64,000 bases of DNA from Chrysomallon squamiferum (taxonomy: Eukaryota > Animalia > Mollusca): contig CM022679.1 in the NCBI GenBank assembly GCA_012295275.1, positions 29,512,001 through 29,576,000 on the forward strand, written 5' to 3'. The stretch's first letter is position 1. Each line of letters begins with the position of its first letter. Below, piece after piece: positions 287 through 47,559 of the stretch. The translations under genes and the position numbers were made by a program. A model generated the notes under the pieces. The model saw nothing but the letters and a program-made list of their open reading frames with translations, had not been told where the DNA came from and ran no database searches.

Positions 287-1166
287 ATGATGCTTCTGAT
301 GTTGATGTTTCTACCGTTGTTTTTACTCGTGTCTGTTCTGGGATATTCTCTGCATCGAGAAAGGTAAGTTAATCGTAAATAGAAGACGTGAGCGTGTAAT
401 TGTACACATACACACACATACACTATATATGTGTCCGAGTGTGTGTATGTGTACACACACACATTCACACATGCATGAATTATATATATGTGTACGAGTG
501 TGAGTATAACTAGGTATCTATGTATGTATGGATGAAAGAGAGTGATTGCCTCAACTACTTTATATACTTTTCCCAAACCGCAAAAGAAAAAGTATTAGTG
601 TTAGGTAAATTCTTTCTTGGAAGAAAATAAGAAACATACTGTATGCTTCACTCTCTAAACACCAAACACAGCTGGTGTTGCTACCTGTTTAAAAAATATA
701 TACGTATTTTTAATATTTTTTAATATTTTTTTTTTTCGAGTCTTTACTGAGGTCTTGATCGTAGTTTAGGGGAAATTTTAGAAGGAAAGAAAGATAACTC
801 TGTCAGAACATTATTTTGCACCATCTTCTTCGCTCTGCATTATTATTATTATTGTTGTTGTCTAGATAAGTTCTCAGATTTTCGAGCTGTATAAGTAAAT
901 GTGTATGAATTCTGTACGAGATAGCTATTCAATTTTCATCTCGGTTTTACCTTTCTGAGGTGGCACACTCGCTATCTTTCGTTTGTTTGTTTTGTGTTGT
1001 TTTTTCTCTATAAACTGTTATTATTTTATGAGCTGACCAGAACGGATTTATACATTTGAATTTGTAGCAGTTATTTACCCGTTCCAGAAAATGATTTCCG
1101 ATTTGTTTATGATTTTATGTTAATGGGAAAGAGGATAATGTTAAGAGTATATGTATATATGTATGT

Positions 1167-1224
<58 letters not shown>

Positions 1225-1347
1225 TTGTGTGTATTTGTGTGAGAGTGTCATATATCTAAAACAAAAGAATGAAAAAAAAATCATGTTAAGATGAAGATAT
1301 TTCGTTTTATAATCTGATAACAGAAATAAGTGATTAAGATAAATAAC

Positions 1348-1394
<47 letters not shown>

Positions 1395-2373
1395 AATCAG
1401 AATTGACAAAATAATGCAAATACAATTTACTTTCCAAGTTGATGTGAACGACTGCGCTTCACGACAATCCGACCTTCTGTATGATTCACATTTTTGTATG
1501 ATTCACACCACGTGTTTATCTCTAAACTTATCTGCTGATGACACCCGTAAAACCCGTAATACCTATTTTTAAAAACGGGTATTGATTTACCACAGTTTAA
1601 TAATCACAATACTCGGCAGACACCCTATACACTGTTTTTATATGTTTATTCACATCACGTATTTACCTGTACACTGTTTTTATATGTTTATTCACATCAC
1701 GTATTTACCTGTACACTGTTTTTATATGTTTATTCACATCACGTATTTACCTGTACACTGTTTTTATATGTTTATTCACATCACGTATTTACCTGTACAC
1801 TGTTTTTATATGTTTATTCACATCACGTATTTACCTGTACACTGTTTTTATATGTTTATTCACACCAAGTATTTACCTGTACACTGTTTTTATATGTTTA
1901 TTCACATCACGTATTTACCTGTACACTGTTTTTATATGTTTATTCACATCACGTATTTACCTGTACACTGTTTTTATATGTTTATTCACATCACGTATTT
2001 ACCTGTACACTGTTTTTATATGTTTATTCACACCAAGTATTTACCTGTACACTGTTTTTATATGTTTATTCACACCACGTATTCACTGTCTATTCATAAT
2101 CCCGATATAGCTCTATGATCAATGTCTATTTTTAGAAACGGGTATTACAGTCTTCAAATTTTAATAACTATATAGACAATATTCGGCAGAAACTAAATTC
2201 TTTGTCTTTAATTTTTCTAAAACTTCTTGTCGTTGTTGTTGTTGTTGTTGCTGTTGTTGTTGTTTTCATTTCTTTACTTGAGATTAGTAATTATTGTTTG
2301 ACTACTACCTTTATTTTAATTTATATTTAAAGCTGGGGATGTGAGGATGAGTGTGTATGTGTGTGTGTGTGTA

Positions 2374-2440
<67 letters not shown>

Positions 2441-2945
2441 TGCAGACTGTTTGTATAAGCTGTATACAAAATAAAATGGAGTTACAGTTTAAACGTAGGA
2501 CGTATTCTAACACTATATCCTATATTTCTTTGCTGGTTCATTAGTTGACTCTTCAGTCTACTGGTTGGTTGAAGAACTGATAAAGTTTCTTTTTTCGTTT
2601 CAGAAATTTTAGGTGCTTTAAAGACTTGTGCACGTATGATGAGCAGTTCTGCAACTGGCAAGAACAACGCTGTCAGAACTGTGAAGACTTTTCAGACTAC
2701 TGCGGAGAACGAGAACAGCCGCAGAACTGTTCAGTGTACTGTGGCCGTAAGTTCTTTCTGAAATAAATCTTCATTTTACCTTACAACGTTTTTGGTTGCT
2801 TTGTGTAGGTTTTTTTGTTTGTTTGTTTTTCGTTTACTATATAAATAAACTGAGAAACTGAACTGATTTGAAATTAATGAAATAAAGTGAATGACTGTCT
2901 AACTGAATTCATCTAAATGAAAAAACGAATAATATTACCACAACA

Positions 2946-2999
<54 letters not shown>

Positions 3000-3150
3000 G
3001 CCAGTACTTCTACTACTACTGCTACTTTTATTATTACTACTACTATTACCATTCCTACTACTACCATTACCACTACTACTGCTGCTGCTATTACTACTAC
3101 TATTAATATTTAATTATAATTGTTTATTATTATTATTTTTATTATTAATA

Positions 3151-3209
<59 letters not shown>

Positions 3210-4154
3210 GTTATTATTATTATTATTATTTCCCAGATTTAAAAATATATTTCTATTTTCTAGAATTCTTGATTCAACAAACGTTGGATTCCTGCAGAGC
3301 TAACTGTTCAGGTGTGTACTTTAGAGTTCTTGACAAGCACGATTCAGTGAAACGTTTATTTTATTTTTATTTATTTTCACAGTAAAACGTTCAAACCATT
3401 TCTACCACTGCTGTTTTTCTAACCATTACAATGTTTGTTCTTTATTTTACTTTAAATCTTCACTTTAAGTTATCCTAAATCAGTTCATTGTTTTTGTATT
3501 TCAAATAACACAGTAACAACAACAACAACGATAACGACAACAATAACAATAATAATAATAATAATACAGATAACGATGATAATATTGAATTTATTGATGA
3601 AGATGATGATGATGATGATTGATGATTATTATGATGAAGAGCTGGATATGATGATGATAATGAATGAATGAATATGAAAATAATGAATGAATAAATAAAG
3701 AACAACATGACTAGATTTCTGTTAATTCTTTGAATAATTATAATTTTAAAAATCAATAACATTAATAACAGCATCAGTGACATCAATATAAAAGTATGAA
3801 TGAATGAATGTATGAATAAATGAATGACTGTATGAATGAATAAATAAATGTATGAATCAATGTATGAATAAATGAATAAATGAGAAGGGACCCTGAAATA
3901 CGCATTATCACTAATTTCATAATTATGAACTTTTAAACAGATATTTCATTTAAAATTTTAAAAACTATTCTATTTTTGCTTTTTTCTTAGAACAAACACC
4001 ACATCCAACGACATCGTCATCAACGTCAACAAAGACCGCAACGCCCACAACACCCACAAAAGGTATGTATCAATAATTTGTGCTTGTCTGTCTGTCTATC
4101 TATCTGTCTTTCTGTCTATCTATCTAAATGTCTGTCTGTCTGTCTATCTATTTA

Positions 4155-4194
<40 letters not shown>

Positions 4195-4475
4195 TCTGTC
4201 TTTCTGTCTGCCTATCTATCTATTTCTCAGCCTGTCAGTCAGTCTATCTATTTGTCTGTCTGTCTGTTTATCGACCAATCTATGTCTGTCTCTCTGTTTA
4301 TCCATTTGCATGTCTCTCTCTATCTGTCTATCTCTCTGCCTGTCTGTCTATCTGTCCGTCCGTCTGTGTGTCTGTCTCTCTATCTATCTTTCTTTCTATC
4401 TATCTATATATATGGGGTTTTTTGTCTGTCTATTATTTTATCTGCCTTCTGTCTTTCTCTCTATCAGTCTATATA

Positions 4476-4506
<31 letters not shown>

Positions 4507-4757
4507 TTATTTCTGTGTATCTATCAATATATCTCTTTTATCTACTTATTTTTTTTTATTTACTTATTTAATAATTTATTTACAGTGTTCTTTTGACGAC
4601 TTACTATTATTATTATTATTTATAATTTTAATTATTGTCAGTTAATCACATAATACTTTTAATTTATATATAAATTAATTTATTAATTTACTTACTGATA
4701 TTTGTGGATTACCCTTCTTTCAGATATTAAAAAAAAAAATAAAAAAAAAAATAAAAA

Positions 4758-4793
<36 letters not shown>

Positions 4794-5270
4794 AATAAAT
4801 AAAAATACAAATCTAACAATACAATGATTATTTAATACGTACTGTTAAAATGTGATGAAATATCATTACAGAAATAATTAAATTATTTATTTATATCCTC
4901 TAATGGATCTAAATTGAAGACTTTGCTTTATTCTCAGATATTTTCACAGAACGCACCGAAGAACATGTCGAAGATAACCAGCTTCTCATAGGCATAGTCA
5001 CAGTCATTGGCGTAACCTCCTTCATAGGTGTCAGTTTTCTGCTGTGCTATCTCTTCAAGAGGAGATTCCCGGATATGCTGAAAAACGACAAAACTACAAA
5101 TTCAAGAAAAAACCGCGAAGAAACAGTTCCCCTTCAAAGTGAGTTAATGTATTATCATTTATTTGTTTATTTATTTATTTACTTATTTATTTATTTGTCT
5201 CTTTGTTTGTTTGTTTGTTTGTTTATTTATTTACTTATTTACTTATTTATTTATTTACTTACTTACTTAC

Positions 5271-5302
<32 letters not shown>

Positions 5303-5436
5303 TTATTTATTAATTTGTCTCTTTCTTTCTTTGTTTATTATTTCATTTTATTTGTTAGATTGTTTATTTATTTGCTTGGTTATTTGTTTATTTATTTATT
5401 TGTTTCCTTATTTATTTATTTATTTATTTATTTGTA

Positions 5437-5488
<52 letters not shown>

Positions 5489-6152
5489 TAAATAAAAATA
5501 AAATTATTTAAAGAATGTTGTGTGGGTTTTGTGTACTTATTTTATCTCACTTCTATGAGAGATACACTGACACTGAGTATTCACTCGTACGTGTGTATTG
5601 TTTGTATATAAAGCACGTGTACACAAACACACATCCGCACACAAACAATTCACCAACACGACAAAGTAACTCGTCATCATTCCCGCATTAATCATGTGTC
5701 TATTTATGTTTTAATCCTGTGTATATTTATGTTTTGTGTATGTAGGTTGTATGTAGGTGTGTATGTAGGTGTGTATGTAGGTGTATCTGTACACACACAA
5801 AAACAGAGACGAACACCAGACGAACACCAGACACACATAAAAAACACGTGCAGAAAAAAAGAAAAAAAAATGACCCTTCGTATTTAATATGGCTTGAAAA
5901 TGCAGTATACTTATATATATCTATGTCTATATCTATATCTATGTTAGAAAAAAGTCAGTGTTAATTTACAAATTTACAGATAAAGGACCAGACAACGGGA
6001 ATAAGGAAACTGTGGAGCCCAAACGTGCAGTCCGTGAAACTGAAAGTTCTGAACGAGCGACTGAACGAGAAGAAAATCTACATCGAAACGACCCCTGGAA
6101 AGGTGTTAGCCCGACCAGCCCTGCCGGAAAATCTGTTCTCCTTCTAAGTTAA
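287..6152 (+). CDS. Single-CRD TNFR-like (Grindelwald/TACI-type) type-I membrane receptor, array copy 1, 237 aa
   Basis: Six in-phase GT-AG exons totalling 714 nt. 287-363 signal peptide MMLLMLMFLPLFLLVSVLG; 2604-2746 CFKDLCTYDEQFCNWQEQRCQNCEDFSDYCGEREQPQNCSVYC; 3264-3311 FLIQQTLDSCRANCS; 3991-4062 Thr/Ser/Pro stalk; 4938-5138 TM LLIGIVTVIGVTSFIGVSFLLCYLF then KRR (alternative in-frame acceptor at 4950); 5980-6152 tail and TAA. Family call from Cys spacing. Confidence 0.85.
1628..2082. repeat. 42-bp minisatellite, ~11 copies, in copy-1 intron 1
   Basis: Unit GTACACTGTTTTTATATGTTTATTCACATCACGTATTTACCT, seen as the 14-aa repeat in ORF 1582..2118. Confidence 0.95.
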
Positions 6153-6427
6153 CTGTTTTAGTCTGAATGTCTGTGTGTCTGTGTGTCTGTGTGTCTGTAT
6201 GTCTGTCTATGCAGGATCTATGAGAGGGGGGATCCACCCATCCTCCCTTGAGACCAATCACGTTCTGCTACCCTCAGCCCGACATGTTGACATTCACACA
6301 CACAAACATCACTATAGCTACCAAACCAGCTTACTTATGTTTATTAGTAGTTTTAGCAATTTGCCTGCTTCGGGAGTCCTAAGATTTCATCACTACTTAC
6401 TAATCTGAATGCACTTCAGTGTTTTCA

Positions 6428-8836: not shown

Positions 8837-9997
8837 ATGACATCGAAGACAGTGATGTTGATGTTTTTGCTGTTCTCTCCGATCGTATCTGTTCTGGGAT
8901 ATTCTCGGAATTCAGAAAGGTAAATTAACTGTAAAGACAAACGAAATAAAGGTACAAATAGGTGTGTGGGTGTGTCGAGATATAATTAACAAATTCATAT
9001 ATACAAAACAAAAGAATGAAAAAAAAATCATGTTAAGATGAAGATGTTTCGTTTTATAATCTGATAACAGAAATAAGTGATTAATGTTATTACAAAATAC
9101 ATAAAAAGATACTTTTTATATGCTTATTCACACCATGTATTTACCCAGTTAATGTCTATTTTTAGAAACGGGTATTACAGTCTTAAAATTTTAATAATTG
9201 TTGATTTTTTTGTTTTTTCTTTTATGTTTACTTGAGTTCAGTAATTACTGTTTGGTTATCTTTATTTTAATTTATATTTAAAACTGGGTTTTTCCAAAAA
9301 GCAATACTATAAATAACGTACAATAAATGAATAAATAAATAGAAAAATATTTTTAAAAAATATTTAAAAAAATAAATAAATAAATAAATAAAAAATCCAA
9401 AAACAGGTAGATGAAACAAAAAAACAAAAAAACAAAATAATTGGCGATAAGATACACATGTGTTCATTCATACTCACACACACACGCACATTCACGTGAT
9501 GTTTTGCTGGTGTCATCTGCTTCACTGAACGATCAACACATCGGTAGACTGAATTACTGGTTTGTCTTCTGGTTCATTAGTTGACTCTTCAGTCTACTGG
9601 TTGGTTGAAGAACTGATAAAGTTTCTTTTTTCGTTTCAGATATTTTAGATGTTATAAAGACTTGTGCACATATGATGACCAGTTCTGCTTTGTTCAAGAA
9701 CAACGCTGTCAGAACTGTGAAGACTTTTCAGACTACTGCGGAAAACGAGAACAGCCGAACAACTGTTCTGTGTTCTGTGGAAGTAAGTTCTGAGAAACTG
9801 AACTGATTTGAACTTAATGAAATAAAGTGAATGACTGTCTAACTGAATTCAACGAAATGAAATAAGTCATCTGAAAAAAGTGACTGACTAAAGAGAACAA
9901 ATAATATTACTATTGCGCTGCCGCCATTATTTCAACTACTATTACCATTACATTACTACTGCTACTATTATTATTGTTGTTGTTGTGTTTATTGTTG

Positions 9998-10031
<34 letters not shown>

Positions 10032-10560
10032 GATTATTATTATTTCGCAGATTTAAAAATATATTTCTATTTTCTAGAATTCTTGATTCAACAAACGTTG
10101 GTTTCCTGCAGAGCTAACTGTTCAGGTGTGTACTTTAGAGTTCTTGACAAGCACGATTCAGTGAAACGTTTATTTTATTTTTATTTATTTTCACAGTAAA
10201 ACGTTGAAACCATTTCTACTATTGCTGCTATTCTAACCATTACATTGTTTGTTCATTTTATAGCAAAACTATTTTACTTTAAATCTTCGTAAACCTATAT
10301 CCCTGTGGATTTTCTTCTTTAAAATAATAAAAAATAATAATAATAGATTTAAAAAAAATATATATAGAAATAAAAATTCAAAACATACAATGGTTACCTA
10401 GTGTTAAAATGTAATGAAATATCATTAAATAATAATTAAATTATTTGTCTGACTTTCTGTCTGTCTGTCTATCGATCTGTATCTATCTATATGTCTCTAT
10501 TTATCTACTTTTTTTTAATTCTTTACTTATATATAAATTTATTTACAATGCTCTTTTGAC

Positions 10561-10605
<45 letters not shown>

Positions 10606-12133
10606 ATTTTAATTACTGTCAGTTAATCACATAATACTTTTAATTTATATTTTTGATTAATTTATTAATTTTACTTACTGATTTTTGTGGATTTTCTTCT
10701 TTCAAATGTAAAATAATAATAATAATAATTAAAATATATATATATACAAAATTAAAAATTAGAAAATACAATGATTATCTACTTTTAAAATGTGATGAAA
10801 TATCATTAAAATAATAATGAAAAGTATTTTTTTATATCCTGTAATGTTTCTGAAACGGAAATTTTGCTTTATTCTCACTGAACATCTAAAATATTTTCAC
10901 ATAACGCAATGAAGAATGTGTTCAAGCTACAAAATCTCTCATAGGCGTTGGCATAGGCTTAGTTATAGGCATTGGCATATTCATAGGCATAACGTTGACA
11001 CTACAGATTAGACAAGAAATTCTGGAATACTGGAAGAACTTCAAAAGCAGGACAAAACCGTAAAGAAACACCTAGGCTTGAAAATAAGTAAAAATGTGTC
11101 ATTATTTTAATGCTATCATTTATTTATTTATTTGTTTAGTTTATTTATTTATTTATTTTATTTTATTTTATTTGTTTATTTGCTTGGTTATTTATTTATT
11201 TTTTTCTTTATTTTTTTCTTTCTTTTTTCTTCTTCTTAATATTTAAATAAAATATTATTTACTCGACTTACGAGTTTTTCGACTTAAGAACAGTCACCTG
11301 GATGATTTTTTGCTTTGAGTTGCGAGCCAAAATCCGAGTTACGAGCTAGCTTCAATTATGCCGCCGCTAGTTGGCGCAACGAACATCGCAACATCCGCCT
11401 AGCATCCCGTGTCTCACTCGTTTACTTGACGTTGTTACATCGCCGCAGAAACATCTCCGTTGTGTTGTGCTCGCGTTTTGTTCAGTATTTCACGGAAAAC
11501 TGAAGCCGAAGGAGTCGATAAAGGCTGTAACTCCAGCCAAAGGCGTTAAAATAATTTGTCTGATCTCCAAGATAAATGCACTTTACAAAACCAATGTATT
11601 TCTTTACATTCTCTTTTACTGTGTATTCACTCGTATGTGTGTATTGTTTCTACATAAAGCACGCACAAACACACACACACACGGAGACACACACATATAT
11701 ACATACCCTTTTAACCAACACACTAGCACAACAAACAAACAAAAAATAATAATAATAACGCTTTATTACTCCCACATTAATTAAGTGTACATTTATGTTT
11801 TTACATTCGTTGGTGCGTATGTAGGTGTATCTTTACACATACACATCAAAAACATATGCGGAAACATACAAAAGGAAAAAAAAAAAAAAAAAAAAAAAAA
11901 AAAGGAAACCTACGTACTTAATACTGGAATGAAAATGCAATGCTTATTTATTTTATTTAACTATAATTTTAAAATATATATATATATATATTAAATATAA
12001 TTTTATTTTAAATTTTACAGGGAATGAACCGGACAACGGCAATGAGGAACACGAACCTGTACAAGAACAAAACATAAATCAAAACAAACCGTGGCAAGCT
12101 GTCATCCCGACCAACAATCTTGTTGCAGGTTAA
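8837..12133 (+). CDS. Receptor array copy 2 with damaged TM exon (soluble or tailless decoy, or pseudogene)
   Basis: Intact exons 8837-8919 (signal peptide), 9640-9782 (CRD), 10078-10125 and 12021-12133 (tail, TAA). No stalk exon. The TM exon (~10903-11083) has its acceptor changed CAG>CAT (10900-10902), its donor changed GTAAGT>ATAAGT (11084) and a frameshift giving TAA at 11061-11063. Confidence 0.7.
11261..11625 (+). mobile_element. More deleted relative of the same Tigger-like family in a copy-2 intron
   Basis: Shares CGACTTACGAG, GATTTTTTGCTTTGAGTTGCGAGCC, CCCGTGTCTCACTCGTTTACTT and CTGAAGCCGAAGGAGTCGATAAAGGC..GTTAAAATAATT with the 12.7 and 23.5 kb copies. Confidence 0.7.
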
Positions 12134-12681: not shown

Positions 12682-13376
12682 CAGTGGTACTTCTACTTAC
12701 GAGTGCCCATCTTATGAGTGTTTCGAGTTACGAGCAGCAACCCGGGCGATTTTTTGCTTTGAGTGGCGAGCCGCTGACTGGTGCAACTAACAACACAACA
12801 TCCGCCCAGCTTCCCGCGTCTCACTCGTTTACTTCAGCCGGTTACCTCGCCGTGGAAACATCTCTGTTGTGTTGTGCACGCGTTTACTCAGTACTTTGCC
12901 AAAAAAAAAAAATTTCTGACCATGGATCCTAAGAAAGTGAGTGCAGCAAAGGACAGTGCTGAGAAGAAGAAGCAGATGATGTCCACTGATTTAAAGCTTG
13001 AATTCACAGAGAAACAAGAGCGAGGTGTGCACGTAGTCGACTTGGCTGGGCACTATCAGTGTAGTACTTCTACCATTTTGAAGCTGAAGGAAATCAAAGC
13101 CGTTAAAATAATTTTGTCTGACCTCCACGATAAATACACTTCACAAAACGAATTTATTTCTTTATATTCCGTTTTATTTTGTTTTTAGGCAATTTTTGTC
13201 ATTTATAAATACATTTTTCTTATTTAAAAATACGTAACAAAAAAAAACAACAAAAAATGGTGGGCTGGAACGGATTAATGGTATTTCTGTTAAATTCAGT
13301 TGGGAAATTTGATTTGATATACGAGCAAATTGAGATACGAGCTCGGTCACGGAATGAATTAAACTCGTAAGTCAAG
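12682..13376 (+). mobile_element. Internally deleted Tigger/pogo-type DNA transposon
   Basis: Left end TA|CAGTGGTACTTCTACTTACGAG and partial inverted right end ACTCGTAAGTCAAG. Internal 12923-13110 encodes MDPKKVSAAKDSAEKKKQMMSTDLKLEFTEKQERGVHVVDLAGHYQCSTSTILK, resembling the N-terminal HTH of Tigger/CENP-B transposases. No DDE domain. Confidence 0.8.
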
Positions 13377-14010: not shown

Positions 14011-14255
14011 ATGACACTTGTGTTTGTGATTCTTCTATGTTTTTCGATCGTACCTGGATTGGGAATTTCTCAGAGTTCAAAAAAGTAAGTTAATCGTAAA
14101 CAAGAACAAAAAAAGAAAAAGAAAAAAGGATATGTTTACAGAAGACTCGATGTATGTGTGTGTGGGTGTCTTTGTGTGTATTTGTATATGTGTGTGTGTT
14201 TGTATATGTGTGTGTGTTTGTGTGTGTATCTGTCTGTGTGTGTAAGTATGTTTGA

Positions 14256-14341
<86 letters not shown>

Positions 14342-14494
14342 TAGACAGACAGACAGACAGAGGGCCGCAACAAACCAAAATTAAAGACTATATTAGTTTT
14401 AGCAAAATTCTTTGTGGATCTATCGTGAAATAGTCAACCTTTGACATAAAATGTATGCTTATATGTAATGTTTGTAATAATTATAATGATGATG

Positions 14495-14526
<32 letters not shown>

Positions 14527-17500
14527 TATTATTATTATTATTATTATTATTATCTAGATCTGTTCACAGTAGCTCTGAGATGTTCTCGAATAACGTAAAA
14601 ACGGTTTCGATTCAACCGCGATACTCATAATTTGTATTGAATATATGCAAGCATGCAGAAGTATAACACTAGATCCTTGATTTGTTTTATATATCCTACA
14701 GCTAAAACAACTTCGTTGAACCGAAAAATCAATGAACTATTTGGCCCCTCTTTTAAAAATAATGCTTTGGTACAATGCCAAGGAATAAGTGCGCATGCGC
14801 AAAGTTCGTACGCGTTTTTCCGTAGAATGACGGGTACACGAAACCAGTTTGCCGCGGAAACCAAACTAAGGGAGGTAACTCTTTATTTTAATGGTATAAA
14901 CAAGGAAAGAAAGGGCCTGCGTGGGGCATTTAATAAAACAGGAAAATCTTCCCTCAAGGATGTTGAAAATAAATTATTAAAGTCTTTAAGTTGCTTGTGC
15001 TTTAGGAACCTGACAGAAAGAAATATCTGGGAACATCTGGTAAGTTTTGTATTATCATTTTGACCCAGATAAACAGGTAGATGACAAAATAAATAAATAA
15101 ATAAATAAAATAATAAATTGGCGATGAATATTAATAGACACATGTGTTCACTCATACTCACACACACACGCACATTCACGTGATGTTTTGCTGGTGTCAT
15201 TTGCTTCACTGAATGATCAACACATCGGTAGACTGAATTACTGGTTTGTTTTTCTGGTTCATTAGTTGTCTCTTCAGTCTACTTGTTGGTTGAAGAACTG
15301 ATAAAGTTTCTTTTTCGTTTCAGATCTTTCAAATGCTTTAAACACTTGTGCACATTTGACAAGCAGTTCTGCTTTTTAGAACAAAAACTTTGTCGGGATT
15401 GTGAAGATTTTAGGCGCCTCTGTGGAAAACGAAAACAGCCGCAGAACTGTTCAGTCTACTGTGGCAGTAAGTTCTTTCTTTCGTGTCTTCATTTTACCTT
15501 ACAACGTTGATTTTTTTGTGTATGTATGTTTTTTCGTTTGCTGTATAAATAATCTGAACTGTTCTGACCTTAATGAAATAAAGTGAATGATTGTCTAGCC
15601 GAATTCAACTAAATGAAATAAGTCATCTGAAAAAAGTGACTGACTAAACAGAACGAATAATAATACTACTACTACGACTACTGCTGCTACTGCTACTATT
15701 ACTACTTTTATTAGTACTATTATTACTACTACTACTGTTGCTATTACTACAATTATATTAATATTTAAATATAACTGCTGTTTATTATTATTATTATTGT
15801 TAAAAATATATTTCTATTTTCTAGAATTCTTGACTCAACAAACGTTGGTTTCCTGCAGAGCTAACTGTTCAGGTGTGTACTTTAGAATTCTTGACAAGCA
15901 CGATTCAGTGAAACGTTTATTTTATTTTTATTTATTTTCACAGTAAAACGTTGAAACCATTTCTACCACTGCTGTTTTTCTAACCATTACATTGTTTGTT
16001 CCTTATTTTACTTTAAATCTTCATAAACCTCCACCCCTTCATTTATCCTAAATCAATTGATTGTTTTTTTATTTCAAATAACAGAAACTACAACAACAAT
16101 AATAATGACAACAATAACAAGAATAATATAATACAGATAATGATGATAATGACGACTACATTGATGAAGATGATGATGATTGATGATGATTATGACGAAA
16201 AGCTGGATATGATGATGAATGGATGAATGATTGAATGAATGAATGTATGTATAAATAATAAATAAATGTATAAAAAGAACATGACGAGGTTTCTGTTAAT
16301 TCTTTGAATAATTATAATTTAAAAAATCAACAATAACATTAATGAAAACACGATCAGTGACATCAGAATAAAAATACGAATGAATGAATGAGAAAGGACC
16401 ATGACACACGCATTATCATTAATTTCATAACTGTGTTCTTTAAACAGGTATCTGTCTGTCTGTCTGTCTGTCTGTCTATCAATCTCTATCATGTATCTGT
16501 CTGTAAGTGTCTACTTTTTATCTACTTTTTATTTATTTACTTATATATAAATTTATTTACAGTGCTCTTTTGACTTATTATTATTATTGTTGTTGTTGTT
16601 GTTATTGTTATTTATAATTTTAATTACTGTCAGTTAATCACATAATATATATATATATATTTATTTGATTTATATATAAATTAATTTATTAATTTAGTTA
16701 CAGATATTTGTGGATTTTCTTCTTTCAAATATTAAATAAAAATAATAAAAAAACAAAAATAAAACATCATTAAAATAATAATTAAATTACTTGTTTGTGT
16801 TCTCTAACGTATCTAAAACAGAAATTTTGATTTATTCTCACTGAACATCTCAAATATTTTCAACTTTCATAGGCACTGGCATAGGCACTGGCATAGGCAC
16901 TGGTATAGCCATTGGCGTAGTCATAATGATAGCCGTGCCATTTTTCATTTTTCTTCTGTGCTACATCTTTGTGAGGAAATTCCGAAATAAGTTGAGAAAC
17001 CTCACTGACAGGACTTCAAATGCAGAACAAAACCGCGAAGAAACAATTCCCCTTCAAAGTAAGTAAATGTGTATCATTGTATTTAATGTTATCATTTGTT
17101 TATTTATTTGTTTCTTTGTTTGCTAGTTTGACTGATTGTTTGATAAATTATTTAGCTATTTTATTTTATTAGTTGTTTATTTGTTTATTTATTTGTTTAT
17201 TTTTTCTTTCTTTCTCTTCTTCTTCTTCTTCTTCTTATTATTATTTAAATAAAATTAATACTATCCAAAGTTTGTATTTGAAGAAAGTTTTAGTTGTGTG
17301 TACTTATTTTATCTCACTTCTGTGAGAGATATACTGATATTGAGTATTCACTAGTATGTGTATATTGTTTCTATATAAAGCAGTCACGCACAAACATACA
17401 CAAATAAATACACACACACACAATTTCCCAACATATTACACACAAAAAAGTAACGCTTTATTACTTCCATATTAATTATGTCTACATTTATGTTTTTTCA

Positions 17501-17866
17501 TTCGTTCGTGTGTACGAAGGTGTATCTGAACACACACTCATCAAAAAACGCATGCAGAAACATACAAAAAAAAAAAAAAAAACTAATAAAAAAAAAAATG
17601 AAACTTACGTACTTAATACTGGAGTGAAAATGCAATATTTATTTATTTTATTTATTCATGTCTGAAAAAAAAAAAAAAAAAAATTAAAAATTAATTACAA
17701 TTTTACAGTGCATGAACCAAACATAAGCATTGAGAAAAATGTGAATCCCAAACGTGTAATCTGTGATGAAGACCTTTGTGAAGAAGATCAAAACCTACAA
17801 CGAAACGAACCGTCGAATCTTTCTGTCCGTAGGAGCAATACTGTTAATGTTGTTGTAAATGCATAA
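14011..17866 (+). CDS. Receptor array copy 3, stalkless with basic CRD, 202 aa
   Basis: In-phase exons totalling 609 nt. 14011-14084 MTLVFVILLCFSIVPGLG; 15324-15466 CFKHLCTFDKQFCFLEQKLCRDCEDFRRLCGKRKQPQNCSVYC; 15825-15872; 16873-17058 GTGIGTGIGTGIAIGVVIMIAVPFFIFLLCYIFV then RKFR; 17709-17866 tail and TAA. Confidence 0.8.
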
Positions 17867-19301: not shown

Positions 19302-19411
19302 CTAATACTGTGGTCTCGTTGACCTGAAGTTAATTTGTTCGCAACCCATTACACTAACTGGACGCCATTATAGTGACGAAGCCATTTTTGTTAACTGAAA
19401 CGAAACTGACA

Positions 19412-19453
19412 ATGACACTTGTGTTTGTGATAAAACATCTCTTTCGTAACTGA
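19412..19453 (+). pseudogene. Truncated remnant of the copy-3-type first exon
   Basis: Matches 14011-14030 and its upstream flank, then diverges to a TGA at 19451-19453 with no splice donor. Confidence 0.75.
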
Positions 19454-19673: not shown

Positions 19674-20351
19674 ATGAATTCAAAAGTTCTTCTGCTTCTA
19701 AGTTGTCTTACAAGAATTTCAACACTTCCAGCCTTTTTCAACGGAGAAAAAAGGTAGGTGATATTTGTAATCATCTATAAAACTGCTTTTATAATTTATA
19801 AATACTTCCGTATGTCGACTGAATTAACAATATACACAACCCGTTATGATTTACTTAATTATTTGTCTTTTATTTTTCCAAAATTGTTCTTGTTGTTGTT
19901 TTTTTTTTTTTTTTCTTTTTTGTTGTTTTTTCTTATGTTTAATTGAGTTCAGTAATTATTTAATTAGTCGTAAAATTCAAATTCTGGGTTTTTCCAAAGA
20001 CAGTTACTTTACGACTAATTAAATTTATATTTAAATTCTGGGTTTTTCCAAAACAGTGATTTTACGACTAATTAAATATATATTTAAATTCTGGGCTTTT
20101 CCAAAACAGTTACTATCAATAACCTTCAACAGATAACACACACGAAAGAAAGAAATAGGCGGAAGAAGAAAAAAGAAAAAAAGAAACAAAGAAAAAATAA
20201 TAAAATTATAAATAAATAAATAGATAAATGTGAAGACATAATCACGATAATAAATATTAAGATTATACTCACACATGTGTACTCATACACCTTCATACAC
20301 ATACAGGCACACAAGCACAGACACATACACACACACAGAAACATTCAGACA

Positions 20352-20384
<33 letters not shown>

Positions 20385-22240
20385 TAATAGGTCCGAAGGT
20401 GAAATTAGTTATCACTCTCACTGTAAAATATCTGAATAACGGATAAAGTAGATATGTTTCTGGTTTCAGATATTTCAAATGCTTTAAAGACTTGTGCACA
20501 TATGATGAGCAGTTCTGCAACTGGAAAGAACAACGCTGTCAGAACTGTGAAGACTTTTCAGACAACTGCGGAAAACGAGAACAGCCGAACAACTGTTCAG
20601 TGTACTGTGGCAGTAAGTTCTTTCTGAAATAAATCAACTGAAAAAAGTGACTAACTAAACACAACAAATAATATTACTACTACTAGTACTACTATTACTA
20701 TTATTGTATTATTACTACTACTGCAACTGCTGCTGCTGCTCCTTTTTTTTTGTTATTGTTGTTATTATTATTAGTAGTAGTATTATTTCTCAGATTTTAT
20801 TAAAAATATATTTCTATTTTCCAGAATTCTTGATTCAACAAATGTTGACTAAAAAATCAGGTATGTAGTTTAGAATTCTTGACAAGCACGATTTGGTGAA
20901 ACGTTTATTTTATTTTTATTTATTTTCACAGTGAAACGTTGAAACCATTTCTACCACTGCTGTTTTTCTAACCATTACATTGTTTGTTCATTTTTTTACT
21001 TTAAATCTTCATAAACCTCCACCCCTTCATTTATCCGAAATCTTTAAACACATATTTCATCTTAAATTATAAAAACTATTCTATTTTTACTTTTTTCTTA
21101 GAACAAACAACACAGCCAACGACACTGTCAACAACGACTGCAACGACCACAAAAGGTATTTATCTATAATTTTTGTTTGTCCGTCTATTTGTCTGTCTGT
21201 CTGTCTGTATGTATATATGCCCCTGTCTGTCCGTTTGTGTGTCTAACAGCCTGTCTTTCTCTCTTTCTCTCTGTCTATCTGCCCATCTATATATCTTTCT
21301 ATCTAGCTGTGTATCTATGTGTATTTCTCTCTCTCTCTCTATCTATCCAACCATCTGTATCTTTGTCTGTCTATCTATCTATCTATCTAGCTATCTATCT
21401 CTATCTGCCTACCTATCAGTCCGTCTGTCTTTCTGTCTATTTATCTGTCTGACTGTCTGTCTGTCTATCTATCGATCTGTATCTATCTATATGTCTCTTT
21501 TTATCTACTTTTTCTATTATTTAGTTATATATAAATTTATTTACAATGCTCTTTTGACTTATAATTATTTTTATTATTATTACTTTTAATTTTAATTACT
21601 GTCAATTAATCACATAATACTTTTAATTTATATTTTTAATTTATTTATAAATTTACTTACTGATCGTTAAATTAAAAAAAAAAATCAATAAATAATAATT
21701 TATAAAAAAATCCAACACCACAATGATTACCTGTTGTTAAAATGTGATGAAACATCATTAAAATAATAATTAAATTACTTGTTTGTATTCTCTAACGTAC
21801 CTAAAACGAAGACTTTGCTTTAGTTGCCCTGAACATCTCAAATATTTTCACAGAACGCACTGAAGAACGTGTTCCAGATAAAAACCATTTCATAGGCATA
21901 GCCGTAGGGATAGTCTTGACAGTTCCCATTTTTCTTCTGTGCAACATCTTTGTGAGGAAATTCCGAAATAAGTCGAGAAATGTCACTGACAGAACTTCAA
22001 ATGCAGGACAAAAACCCCAAGAAACATTTCCCCTTCAAAGTAAGTAAATGTGTATCATTGTATTAATGTTATCATTTGTTTATTTGTTTGTCTGTTTGTT
22101 TGTTTAATTATTTAATTATTTATTGATTTGTTATTTTATTATAGTTATTTAGTTAGTTATTTTATTTTATTTTATTTGTTTATTTGCTTTGTTATTTGTT
22201 TATTTATTATTTTCTTTCTTTTTTCTTTCTTTCTTTCTTT

Positions 22241-22271
<31 letters not shown>

Positions 22272-22716
22272 TTATTATTATCATCATTATTATTTTTATT
22301 ATTATTTAATTATTTTATTTAAATTTAGTTTTAGTTGTGTGTACTTTTTTAACACACACACACACACACAATTTACCAACACATTAGCACAAAAAAAATA
22401 AATGTAAGATGTATCTTTACATACACGCATCAAAAACACATGGAGAAGGAATAAAAAAGAAGGAAGGAAAAAAATTAAACCTACGTTCTTAATACTAGAG
22501 AGAAAATGCAATACTTATTTATTTTATTTAACTATATTTTAAAAAAATAATTAAAAATTAAATGTTATGTTTATTTAAAATTTTACAGGGAATGAACCGG
22601 ACAACGGCAATGAGGAACACGAACCTGTACAAGAACAAAACATAAATCAAAACAAACCGTGGAAAGGTGTCATCCCGACCAGTGAAGACACTGACTACAA
22701 TCTTGTTGCAGGTTAA
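19674..22716 (+). CDS. Receptor array copy 4, alternative first exon, 208 aa
   Basis: In-phase exons totalling 627 nt. 19674-19753 MNSKVLLLLSCLTRISTLPAFFNGEK with phase-2 donor AG|GTAGGT; 20470-20612 CRD; 20825-20860; 21102-21155 Thr stalk; 21854-22039 TM FIGIAVGIVLTVPIFLLCNIFV; 22589-22716 tail with PVQE and TDYNLV, TAA. Confidence 0.75.
19962..20115. repeat. ~56-bp tandem repeat x3
   Basis: AAATTCTGGG.TTTTCCAAA.CAGT occurs three times. Confidence 0.8.
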
Positions 22717-23429: not shown

Positions 23430-24070
23430 TTTCGATTTTTGCTTTGAGTTAAACTGCGAGCCAAAAAATCCGAGTTACGAGCGAGCTTCAGATACGATGC
23501 GACGAGCAACACAACATCTGCCCAGAGTCCCGCGTCTCACTTGTTTACTTCACCCGGTTACCTCGCCGCGGAAACATCTCTGTTGTGTTGTGCACGCGTT
23601 TACTCAATACTTTGCCAAATTTCTTTGTTCTGACCATGGATCCTAAGAAAGTGAGTGCAGCAAAGGACAGTGCTGAGAAGAAGAAGCAGATGATGTCCAC
23701 TTATTTAAAGCTTGAATTCATAGAGCAACATGAGCGAGGTGTGCACGTAGTCGACTTGACTAGGCACTATCAGTGTAGTACTTCTACCATTTTGAAGGTG
23801 AAGGAGTCAAAGCCGTTAAAATAATTTTGTCTGACCTCCATGATAAATAGACTTTACAAAACCAATTTATTTCTTTATATTCTGTTTTATTTTGTTTTTA
23901 GGCAATTTTTGTCATTTATAAATACATTTTTCTTATTTAAAAATACGTCACAAAAAACCCCTAAAAAATGGTAGGCTGGAACGGATTAATGGTATTTCAG
24001 TTAATTTCAGTTCGGAAAATTGATTTGATATACGAGCTCGGTCACGGTATGAATTAAACTCGTAAGTCAA
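23430..24070 (+). mobile_element. Second copy of the Tigger/pogo relic, duplicated with the copy-2/4 3' flank
   Basis: Near-identical to 12750-13373. ORF 23585..23824 carries the same MDPKKVSAAK fragment. Confidence 0.8.
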
Positions 24071-25419
24071 TATATATATATCTTGCATTCTATTTATATA
24101 AGCTCTATATGAAATATAAATGAAATTAGATAAAATACACGACATACACAAAATATTTTATTAATAGTAATTTATTATTTACATCTAACGAACATAATTA
24201 TAAGGAAACCTCGTTTAAAACCACCGACATGGCCACGCCCAAAATATAAACTGTTCCACTTAAGTAGAAACTCTTGTTTTTTGTGTGTAATATATTCCCA
24301 CACAAATACGCTAATTCTAAATAAACTGGCTTCTGTTCCTATGCGTTTCGCTCTTTGGTTGTGTAAACAAACACACACACAAAAATAAAAATAAAAAAAA
24401 AAAATAAAAATACAAAGAATATTGCCAGTGTTTGAAGACAGCAATCAATGGCGATTTGTTCTAAATACGCTACAAGCGATCGATATTCTCATTAAGGTAT
24501 TGTCAATGTAGCTTTAGCCAGTGTGGTTCCGCCCTAATGCAGAAACAGAAACATTTATTTGATTGAAAACGAAACGAAATCTTACTGAACTGGTTAATTG
24601 TCAGACATGACCGCACTGCCAGTTTGCGAAACGTTACAAACGTGCACGAAAAATCGTAGAATCGTCTTTCGCTGTTTTACGAGTTTTGAACCACAGTTTC
24701 CTCCCTCCACTTCGTCGTGTAGGAAGATGGAAGTGACTCGATATTCTCTGTTTGTTTGTCTGGCCGTCGATCGATGATAGGGTTTCGATTATTGCTATTG
24801 GTATTTTTCTTTAATCGATTTTTACCGTTTAGGTAAGTGACTTTCTGCTCGGTTCAAAAGCTGCAGTATTCGTGAATGTTTCACTTCTCGTATATTATTC
24901 AACGAAGTCTCGATTTTCAGTTTTCAGTGTGTAAATCAACAAAAAAAAAATATATATGGAATATATATGGGAAATATAACTGGAATTGTCTTTATTAACA
25001 ATTTTAATTTGTCATATAGAAACGACAAAACATTGGCGGATTATATTTTTTTGTAAAGGTTCGTCTTAGGAAAATCAACGAAGTTTTTAAAGCGTTAATT
25101 CTGTTCTAGGATTCTTATGTACGAAATTCAACGATTCGGGGATTTTCTGTTTTCGTTTAACTTCGCCTTTACGAAAATCAACGAAGTTCTTAAATCAAGA
25201 GTGAATAATTCTTATTTCGTAAGATTCTGATTTTTACGAAAATTAACGCAGAACATAAAGACTTTTTTTTTTTCAGACAGAAATGTTTAAACAAATTCAT
25301 TGAAGTTTTTATAATAATTAATACATACAGTTCTTATTCTGTTAAAATAGAAAATGTGAAAATAGTGGAAAATAATTACTAAAAGAATATTATGAAAAGG
25401 TAATTGTTGAAGACTAATT

Positions 25420-26112
25420 AAAACAAACTAGATCTAACTAGATGAAAAACAAACTAGATCTAACTGGATGAAAAACAAACAAGATCTTACTTGAACAAAA
25501 ACTAACTAGATCTAACTAGAAGTAAAACAAACTAGATCTAACTAGAAGAAAAAACAAACTAGATCTAACTAGATCTAACTAGAAGAAAAACAAACAAGGT
25601 CTAACTAGAAGAAAAACAAACAAGATCTAACTAGAAGAAAAACAAACTAGATCTAACTAGAAGAAAAACAAACAAGATCTAACTAGAAGAAAAACAAACT
25701 AGATCTAACTAGAAGAAAAACAAACAAGGTGTAACTAGAAGAAAAACAAACAAGATCTAACTAGAAGAAAAACAAACAAGATCTAACTAGAAGAAAAACA
25801 AACAAGATCTAACTAGAAGACAAAAAACTAACTAGATCTAACTAGAAGAAAACCAAATTGATCAAACTAGAGTAAAAAAAACTAATAACTTAACTGAAAT
25901 AAAAACAAACAAGGTGTAACTATAAAAAAACAAACAAGATCTAACTAGGACAAAACAAACTGGATCTAACTAAAGAAAAACAAACAAGGTGTAACTAGAA
26001 GAAAAAAAAACAAGATCTAACTAGAAGAAAAACAAACAAGATCTAACTAGAAAAAAAACAACAAGAACTAAAGAATAAAAACAAACAAGATCTAACAAGT
26101 CAAACAAGATCT
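25420..26112. repeat. 26-bp minisatellite, ~25 copies
   Basis: Unit AAACAAACTAGATCTAACTAGAAGAA with variants (CAAGATCT, CAAGGTGT). Confidence 0.95.

Positions 26113-28481: not shown

Positions 28482-47559
<19,078 letters not shown>

Follow-up and report, generated by a model that had tools for sequence, protein, structure and literature searches.

The locus considered here raises the question of whether a receptor gene whose transmembrane (TM) exon has lost both splice sites still encodes a protein and, if so, whether that protein is secreted. The window, a 64,000-nt stretch of the Chrysomallon squamiferum genome (contig CM022679.1, positions 29,512,001 to 29,576,000), contains in its first 24 kb four tandem copies of one small cysteine-rich receptor gene, and exon-wise searches found no fifth. 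The intact copies combine a signal peptide, a single cysteine-rich domain, a TM segment and a short tail, as judged by hydropathy only (for copy 4, via a candidate exon 1); the tails were found by eye to be polar and short. Copy 2 is the one with the disrupted TM exon, and its parts are listed with the sister copies in Table 1.

Table 1. Receptor copies of the array and parts of copy 2 (window positions).
Feature	Positions	Strand	Description
Copy 1	287..6153	+	Open over six exons (233 aa), with signal-like start, cysteine domain, Thr-rich stalk, TM and tail
Copy 2 exon 1	8837..8919	+	Carries the start codon; signal-peptide-like stretch with hydropathy 2.61 over 12 residues; phase 2
Copy 2 exon 2	9640..9782	+	Eight-cysteine domain, spacing 4,6,6,2,6,8,3, phase 1
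Copy 2 exon 3	10078..10125	+	Two more cysteines, phase 1; 47/48 nt shared with copies 1 and 3
Dead acceptor CAT	10900..10902	+	CAG in copies 1 and 4; run X2 agrees, the related X6 contig has G
TM pseudo-exon	10903..11083	+	One extra base near 10998, stop at 11061-11063, 15-nt deletion; 10870-11050 matched by X2
Seven candidate cryptic acceptors	10912..10986	+	In-frame AG at 10913, 10925, 10943, 10955, 10961, 10967, 10985
Dead donor AT	11084..11085	+	GT in copies 1, 3 and 4; read from the assembly
Repeat fragment	11267..11627	+	In the intron 3′ of the pseudo-exon; related elements at 12711-13185 and 23436-23898
Copy 2 last exon	12021..12133	+	Polar ex-cytoplasmic tail with PVQE; 111/113 nt shared with copy 4; one 15-nt deletion
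Copy 3	14011..17866	+	Open over five exons (202 aa), stalk exon absent; TM acceptor shifted to 16873
Copy 4	19674..22716	+	Open, 208 aa with candidate exon 1; eight cysteines, stalk, TM, PVQE tail

The sister copies show several rearrangements of their own. In copy 3, a deletion at 16840–16900 removed the ancestral TM acceptor together with the codons preceding the TM, and a well-scoring new acceptor is used at 16873; the same shifted form is present in sequencing run X1. Copy 4 was at one point regarded as a 5′-broken gene, a view dropped once its candidate exon 1 (19674–19753) was recognised, the DNA of which has no clear likeness to the other first exons. Upstream of it, at 19357–19431, lies a truncated duplicate of copy 3 exon 1 (98.7% identity over 75 nt); the candidate signal exon behind it is in the correct phase and looks unrelated, an arrangement that may reflect exon recruitment. 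Exon 3 of copy 4 (20825–20860) is shorter by 12 nt and lacks both extra cysteines, and their joint absence is consistent with the two forming a pair. Across 1–24400, many intron blocks are 90–100% identical among copies, versus 67–92% for the first, second and TM exons, a contrast that would fit either strong intron conversion or rapid exon change. Other features of the window are a 42-nt tandem array inside the first intron of copy 1 (1624–2086), a promoter-like fragment at about 24095–24394, an A-rich short-unit tandem array 3′ of the gene array (about 25430–26100) and exons of a formin-like gene (about 43138–47556), with a weak FH2 match at 46132–46380 (E 2.6e-4, under the Pfam cut-off).

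A previous sequence-only reading of copy 2 had claimed that both splice sites of the TM exon are lost and its frame shifted, that the signal, cysteine-rich domain, exon 3 and last exon are intact, and that the flanking introns are both in phase 1, and each of these points is borne out. The acceptor and donor dinucleotides are replaced as given in Table 1, and the distance from the TM end to the next conserved codon is 31 nt, versus 30 nt in copies 3 and 4. The extra base brings a TAA into the TM frame, and the pseudo-exon's 15-nt deletion is in-frame and lies downstream of the frameshift. The Gly/Ile-rich hydrophobic stretch of the pseudo-exon is still open (hydropathy 2.4–2.5 over 19 residues). 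The Thr-rich stalk exon of copies 1 and 4, overlooked in that reading, is absent from copy 2. The intron 3′ of the pseudo-exon carries a repeat fragment that has no match in the equivalent intron of any other copy; two of this and its two related elements contain a short transposase-like reading frame. We take these repeats to be Tigger-like; Pfam gave no transposase match for them.

The four remaining exons of copy 2 have canonical GT/AG ends and, joined across a 1895-nt intron that skips the TM exon, form an open frame of 387 nt encoding 128 aa. This product keeps all ten cysteines and the signal-like start, and has no second hydrophobic stretch: its best 19-residue hydropathy after the domain is 0.77, versus 2.3–3.0 in the TM forms of the family, a value on which a GPI anchor or a hidden TM was rejected. 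All three sister copies bear a TM. In each splice outcome examined, copy 2 is without a TM or a signalling tail at the DNA level.

We consider the best explanation, with a probability of roughly 0.45, to be that copy 2, if transcribed, joins exon 3 to the last exon and yields a predicted secreted protein, possibly competing for the ligand of its sisters. We hypothesize that the first step was the loss of one TM-exon splice site in a duplicate receptor; with phase-1 introns on both sides, skipping would have been in-frame, and the TM exon would then have degenerated, with constraint continuing to act on the signal and cysteine exons. The secreted product could compete for the ligand of membrane-bound copies 1 and 4. 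Its ex-cytoplasmic tail, which carries a TRAF-type motif, would come to lie extracellularly and could not signal. The proposal supposes that copy 2 is transcribed, that skipping prevails over cryptic splicing, that selection acts on the remaining exons, and that these encode a Grindelwald-like TNF-receptor module able to bind ligand. The product may function as a decoy. A bolder version, in which a secreted decoy was born by mutational knock-out of one exon in a Grindelwald-like array, was selected and now segregates against an intact membrane allele, outside the vertebrate decoy families, appears improbable to us.

Alternatively, and this is the possibility that we take most seriously among the rivals while still holding it tentative, copy 2 may be a dead or dying paralogue in a birth-and-death array, with the skipped transcript as a by-product. 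One lesion would have killed the gene and the TM exon would have drifted, the intact look of the other exons being due either to a recent loss or to repeated overwriting by recombination with neighbours. Such pseudogenisation combined with gene conversion, omitted from the sequence-only reading, accounts for much of the same pattern. Copy 2 is indeed a mosaic: its 5′ flank resembles copy 1, exon 3 with its flanks shares 95–100% identity with copies 1 and 3, and copy 4 is the closest match for the last exon (98%) and for some 1.3 kb beyond it. Given this near-identity, the intactness of exon 3 and the last exon may stem from conversion or recent duplication. The missing stalk exon, the repeat fragment in the intron following the pseudo-exon and debris elsewhere in the array (the truncated exon-1 duplicate upstream of copy 4 and the promoter-like fragment) point in the same direction. 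Besides, the part behind the TM changes quickly in copy 1 too, although that copy is intact (12.5 of 78 nt, versus 15.5 in copy 2).

Against the death of copy 2 stands the distribution of its damage, as all three lesions fall in one of five exons. The first two exons, specific to copy 2 (76% and 87–89% identical to the nearest copy), keep their frame, splice sites and all cysteines; at the protein level, the cysteine domain is 83% identical to those of copies 1 and 4. In a neutral-decay simulation, exons 1 and 2 stayed intact while two further lesions struck the TM exon with a chance of 0.5–3% at divergence up to 0.2 and of 10–33% up to 0.05, figures to be read with the caveat that copy 2 was selected for study by this very lesion pattern. 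The corresponding chance for all four exons is 0.1–0.8% and 3–17%, respectively, but counting all four is unfair since exon 3 and the last exon match sister copies almost completely (Table 1).

The dN/dS of copy 2 in exon 2 against the three sisters is 0.37–0.42, and the copy 2 branch carries 4.5 silent and 7.5 replacement changes (dN/dS 0.38, compared with 0.46 for copy 1 and 0.69 for copy 4), a value that argues against a dying copy. Loss of constraint over the whole branch is rejected (P of 0.003 or less) and over half of it weakly rejected (P 0.02–0.11), while loss over the last quarter is not rejected (P 0.08–0.42); among the private changes, 3/7 are silent (P 0.13). Taken together, the confinement of lesions to one exon, the intact exons 1 and 2 and the low dN/dS lean towards selective retention. 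A recent death is compatible with the last-quarter test and would be nearly as likely as the secreted form.

Sequencing runs bear on the same alternative from two sides. Nine runs from three studies match the region, and four were aligned to the TM exon (10800–11112). The lesion haplotype recurs in a second sample, which speaks against a dying copy, and an intact relative is found in run X6, which speaks for it. Over 10800–10901, the intron in the X6 contig is that of copy 2 save for two letters and one insertion (about 3%), while position 10902 is G and the exon shows nine listed substitutions, a net 12-nt deletion and, from a reading of 30 loose letters, no extra base. This intact-looking TM exon could belong either to a copy 2 allele or to a sister copy absent from the window, so the loss in copy 2 may concern just one allele or one recent sister copy. 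The close intron next to a divergent exon suggests intron conversion or diversifying selection on the exon. In a separate observation, copy-4-like contigs of runs X1 and X2 have a Gly/Ile repeat (against 10952–10987) that is more like that of copy 2 than is the repeat of copy 4 in the window, so TM length seems to differ between haplotypes.

A separate issue is the family to which the array belongs. The exon 2 spacing is followed in copies 1–3 by a further 11,3, and Phe precedes the third cysteine. All four copies share with Anopheles Grindelwald (Grnd; spacing 3,5,6,2,3,6,3, Tyr before C3; PMC9646898 supplement) an aromatic residue before C3, the C3-x6-C4-x2-C5 run and C7-x3-C8, the aromatic and the last pair corresponding to Phe46 and C73-x3-C77 of the fly protein. 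The Grnd fold consists of an X2 β-hairpin and then a helical C2 module. Fly Grnd is described as a hairpin module (35–54, with Phe46) followed by C57-x3-C61-x11-C73-x3-C77 (PMC8024323); the 15-residue C5-to-C7 span of the array copies and a C-x3-C-x11-C-x3-C run occur as in this C2 module, with C6 displaced by three. CXXCXXXC is given as the signature of Grnd-like receptors (bioRxiv 10.1101/2024.07.27.603686). All four copies have C-x2-C-x6-C at this place, and we therefore file the array genes as resembling Grnd, not as members. In copies 2 and 4, the last exon contains PVQE, four letters that could occur by chance; PVQET in MAVS binds TRAF2/5 (PMC3743401). No TRAF-type motif was found in copies 1 and 3.

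Homologue searches used the 47-residue exon 2 peptide or the four-copy alignment, covering exon 2 only, without the two cysteines of exon 3. No relevant Pfam family was found for any of the four exon 2 peptides (tools of this kind often miss Grnd homologues), and no match was obtained among PDB sequences, in a word search of longer proteins, with HMMER over 1.84 billion representatives, in the ESM Atlas or in viral and metagenome contigs. Two low-confidence models of exon 2 alone (pLDDT 52 and 53) gave one hairpin plus a helix and a helix only, respectively, and fold searches with the first were uninformative (Foldseek best E 2.7, VIA best Z 3.4).

On the strength of the cysteine spacing, the layout and the one TRAF-type motif, kinship with TNF receptors is probable, in the sense of a resemblance. 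That the array encodes some other small cysteine-rich type I membrane protein seems rather unlikely to us; copy 2 would then still be a TM-less paralogue, but to call it a TNFR decoy would be a misnomer. The missing matches in Pfam, PDB sequences, the 1.84 billion representatives and the ESM Atlas would fit such a family, as would C5-x6-C6 in place of x3, the two extra cysteines of copies 1–3 and the lack of a TRAF-type motif in copies 1 and 3. However, the succession of a signal, one cysteine cluster, a TM and a short tail, the cysteine and aromatic positions shared with the Anopheles and fly proteins, and PVQE in copies 2 and 4 speak for a TNF-receptor type, and Grnd homologues are reported to escape sequence annotation (PMC9646898).

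A less probable fate of copy 2 is a tailless, non-signalling surface receptor, in which the TM is re-opened from a cryptic in-frame AG and the shifted frame adds a tail of 19 residues before its stop. Splice sites were scored with a crude matrix derived from sites within the array itself, a paralogous and non-independent training set that makes the scores a guide only. The seven cryptic acceptors score −11.6 to 4.1, versus 6.4–18.5 for 16 of the 17 used acceptors (the remaining used site scores −0.6), and the six GT donors in the vicinity range from −13.7 to 0.5, versus 6.2–12.5 for 16 used donors. Because cryptic acceptors and nearby donors score so poorly, exon skipping would be the likelier outcome. 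The acceptors proposed in the sequence-only reading, both AAG (10912–10914 and 10924–10926), are in the TM frame and give the 19-residue tail, but they score like random AGs: exons starting at 10915, 10927 and 10945 correspond to scores of −11.6, −8.0 and −3.7, values also attained by 55%, 36% and 20%, respectively, of the 607 AGs taken as background, while the new acceptor of copy 3 is equalled by 0.8% of them. Five further in-frame AGs had been overlooked, all TAG (10942, 10954, 10960, 10966 and 10984); the first of these, the one before 10945, proved not to be a strong acceptor at its score of −3.7. The top-scoring cryptic acceptor, giving an exon start at 10987, would lead to the loss of most of the TM.

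Several features would nevertheless suit a tailless form, including the TM frame common to all seven AGs, from 10913 to 10985, the retained hydrophobicity of the TM stretch (2.43–2.48) and the absence from copy 2 of two shifted-frame stops seen in copies 3 and 4. The family has been able to move its TM acceptor, as copy 3 demonstrates, and the most plausible site in copy 2 is the TAG before 10945, of the type that copy 3 now uses. The stop codon lies 24 nt upstream of a possible donor at 11088, with an AATAAA at 11246, so under the 50-nt rule for transcript decay a tailless transcript could escape degradation. Set against these are the low scores at 10915, 10927 and 10945, the absence of a good donor, and the fact that the shifted frame is open in intact copy 1 as well, which makes its openness in copy 2 weak evidence.

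The short-read contigs bear out two of the three lesions described in the sequence-only reading, the acceptor loss and the frameshift; no copy-2-type contig reaches the donor at 11084. Both confirmed lesions stand in a contig from run X2, which belongs to a study other than that of the best-matching run, X1: over its 181 nt (10870–11050) it differs from the assembly by one letter, with no gaps and T at 10902, although its depth is low (5.4) and its independence from the assembly is not provable. Run X1 yielded only copy-3- and copy-4-like pieces of the TM exon and X8 no piece, gaps that are not proof of absence. That the lesions are assembly errors is very improbable and largely refuted for the acceptor loss and the frameshift, since both recur in the short-read contig of a second study, even though the donor lies outside all copy-2-type contigs and X1 gave no copy-2-type piece. 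A small remainder of probability belongs to outcomes other than a secreted, decaying, tailless or misassembled copy 2.

If the secreted reading is correct, several known receptors offer parallels. DcR3, OPG, DcR1 and DcR2 each carry several classical TNFR repeats. Like copy 2, they are dedicated genes without a TM or a working tail (PMC13512678, PMC5295404). Unlike copy 2, whose product has no hydrophobic C-terminus, DcR1 carries a GPI anchor, and the death domain of DcR2 is truncated; the copy 2 product has a single, unrelated-looking Grindelwald-like cysteine cluster. The comparison with DcR3, OPG and DcR2 drawn in the sequence-only reading thus survives as an analogy of outcome; membership of that group is not supported, given the one cluster and no profile or structure match. 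Soluble Fas arises by in-frame skipping of a TM exon, FAS exon 6, which likewise gives a soluble receptor bearing the old tail (PMC4924680). There, however, a single gene produces the soluble form as a regulated isoform, with ligand blocking demonstrated, whereas in copy 2 the soluble form would be built in by mutation of a duplicate known from sequence alone.

With Grnd and Grnd-like receptors the array shares the signal peptide, a small domain with an eight-cysteine core, the TM and the short tail (PMC8024323, PMC9646898); lineage-specific expansions of such receptors are reported, the number of paralogues reaching 12 in one annelid (bioRxiv 10.1101/2024.07.27.603686). It differs in C5-x6-C6 in place of CXXCXXXC, in the ten cysteines of copies 1–3, in giving no sequence or fold match and in the unusable TM exon of copy 2. 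The extracellular part of Grnd binds Eiger without signalling, with clone growth unaffected in that study (PMC11373512), and an engineered Grnd ectodomain serves as a dominant negative (PMC6917273); further background is given in PMC3697994 and bioRxiv 10.1101/2021.12.26.474206. In our literature search, no naturally occurring secreted paralogue of the Grnd-like type came to light.

Should copy 2 be a dying gene, its loss would be an ordinary event in a fast-turnover gene array. If it is expressed and binds ligand, it would indicate that a decoy receptor can be derived from a signalling paralogue by few point mutations, and would provide a natural secreted member of a receptor type for which the literature search found none. 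The intact relative in another sample would then, if the decoy reading is true, permit a comparison of the locus before and after this change.
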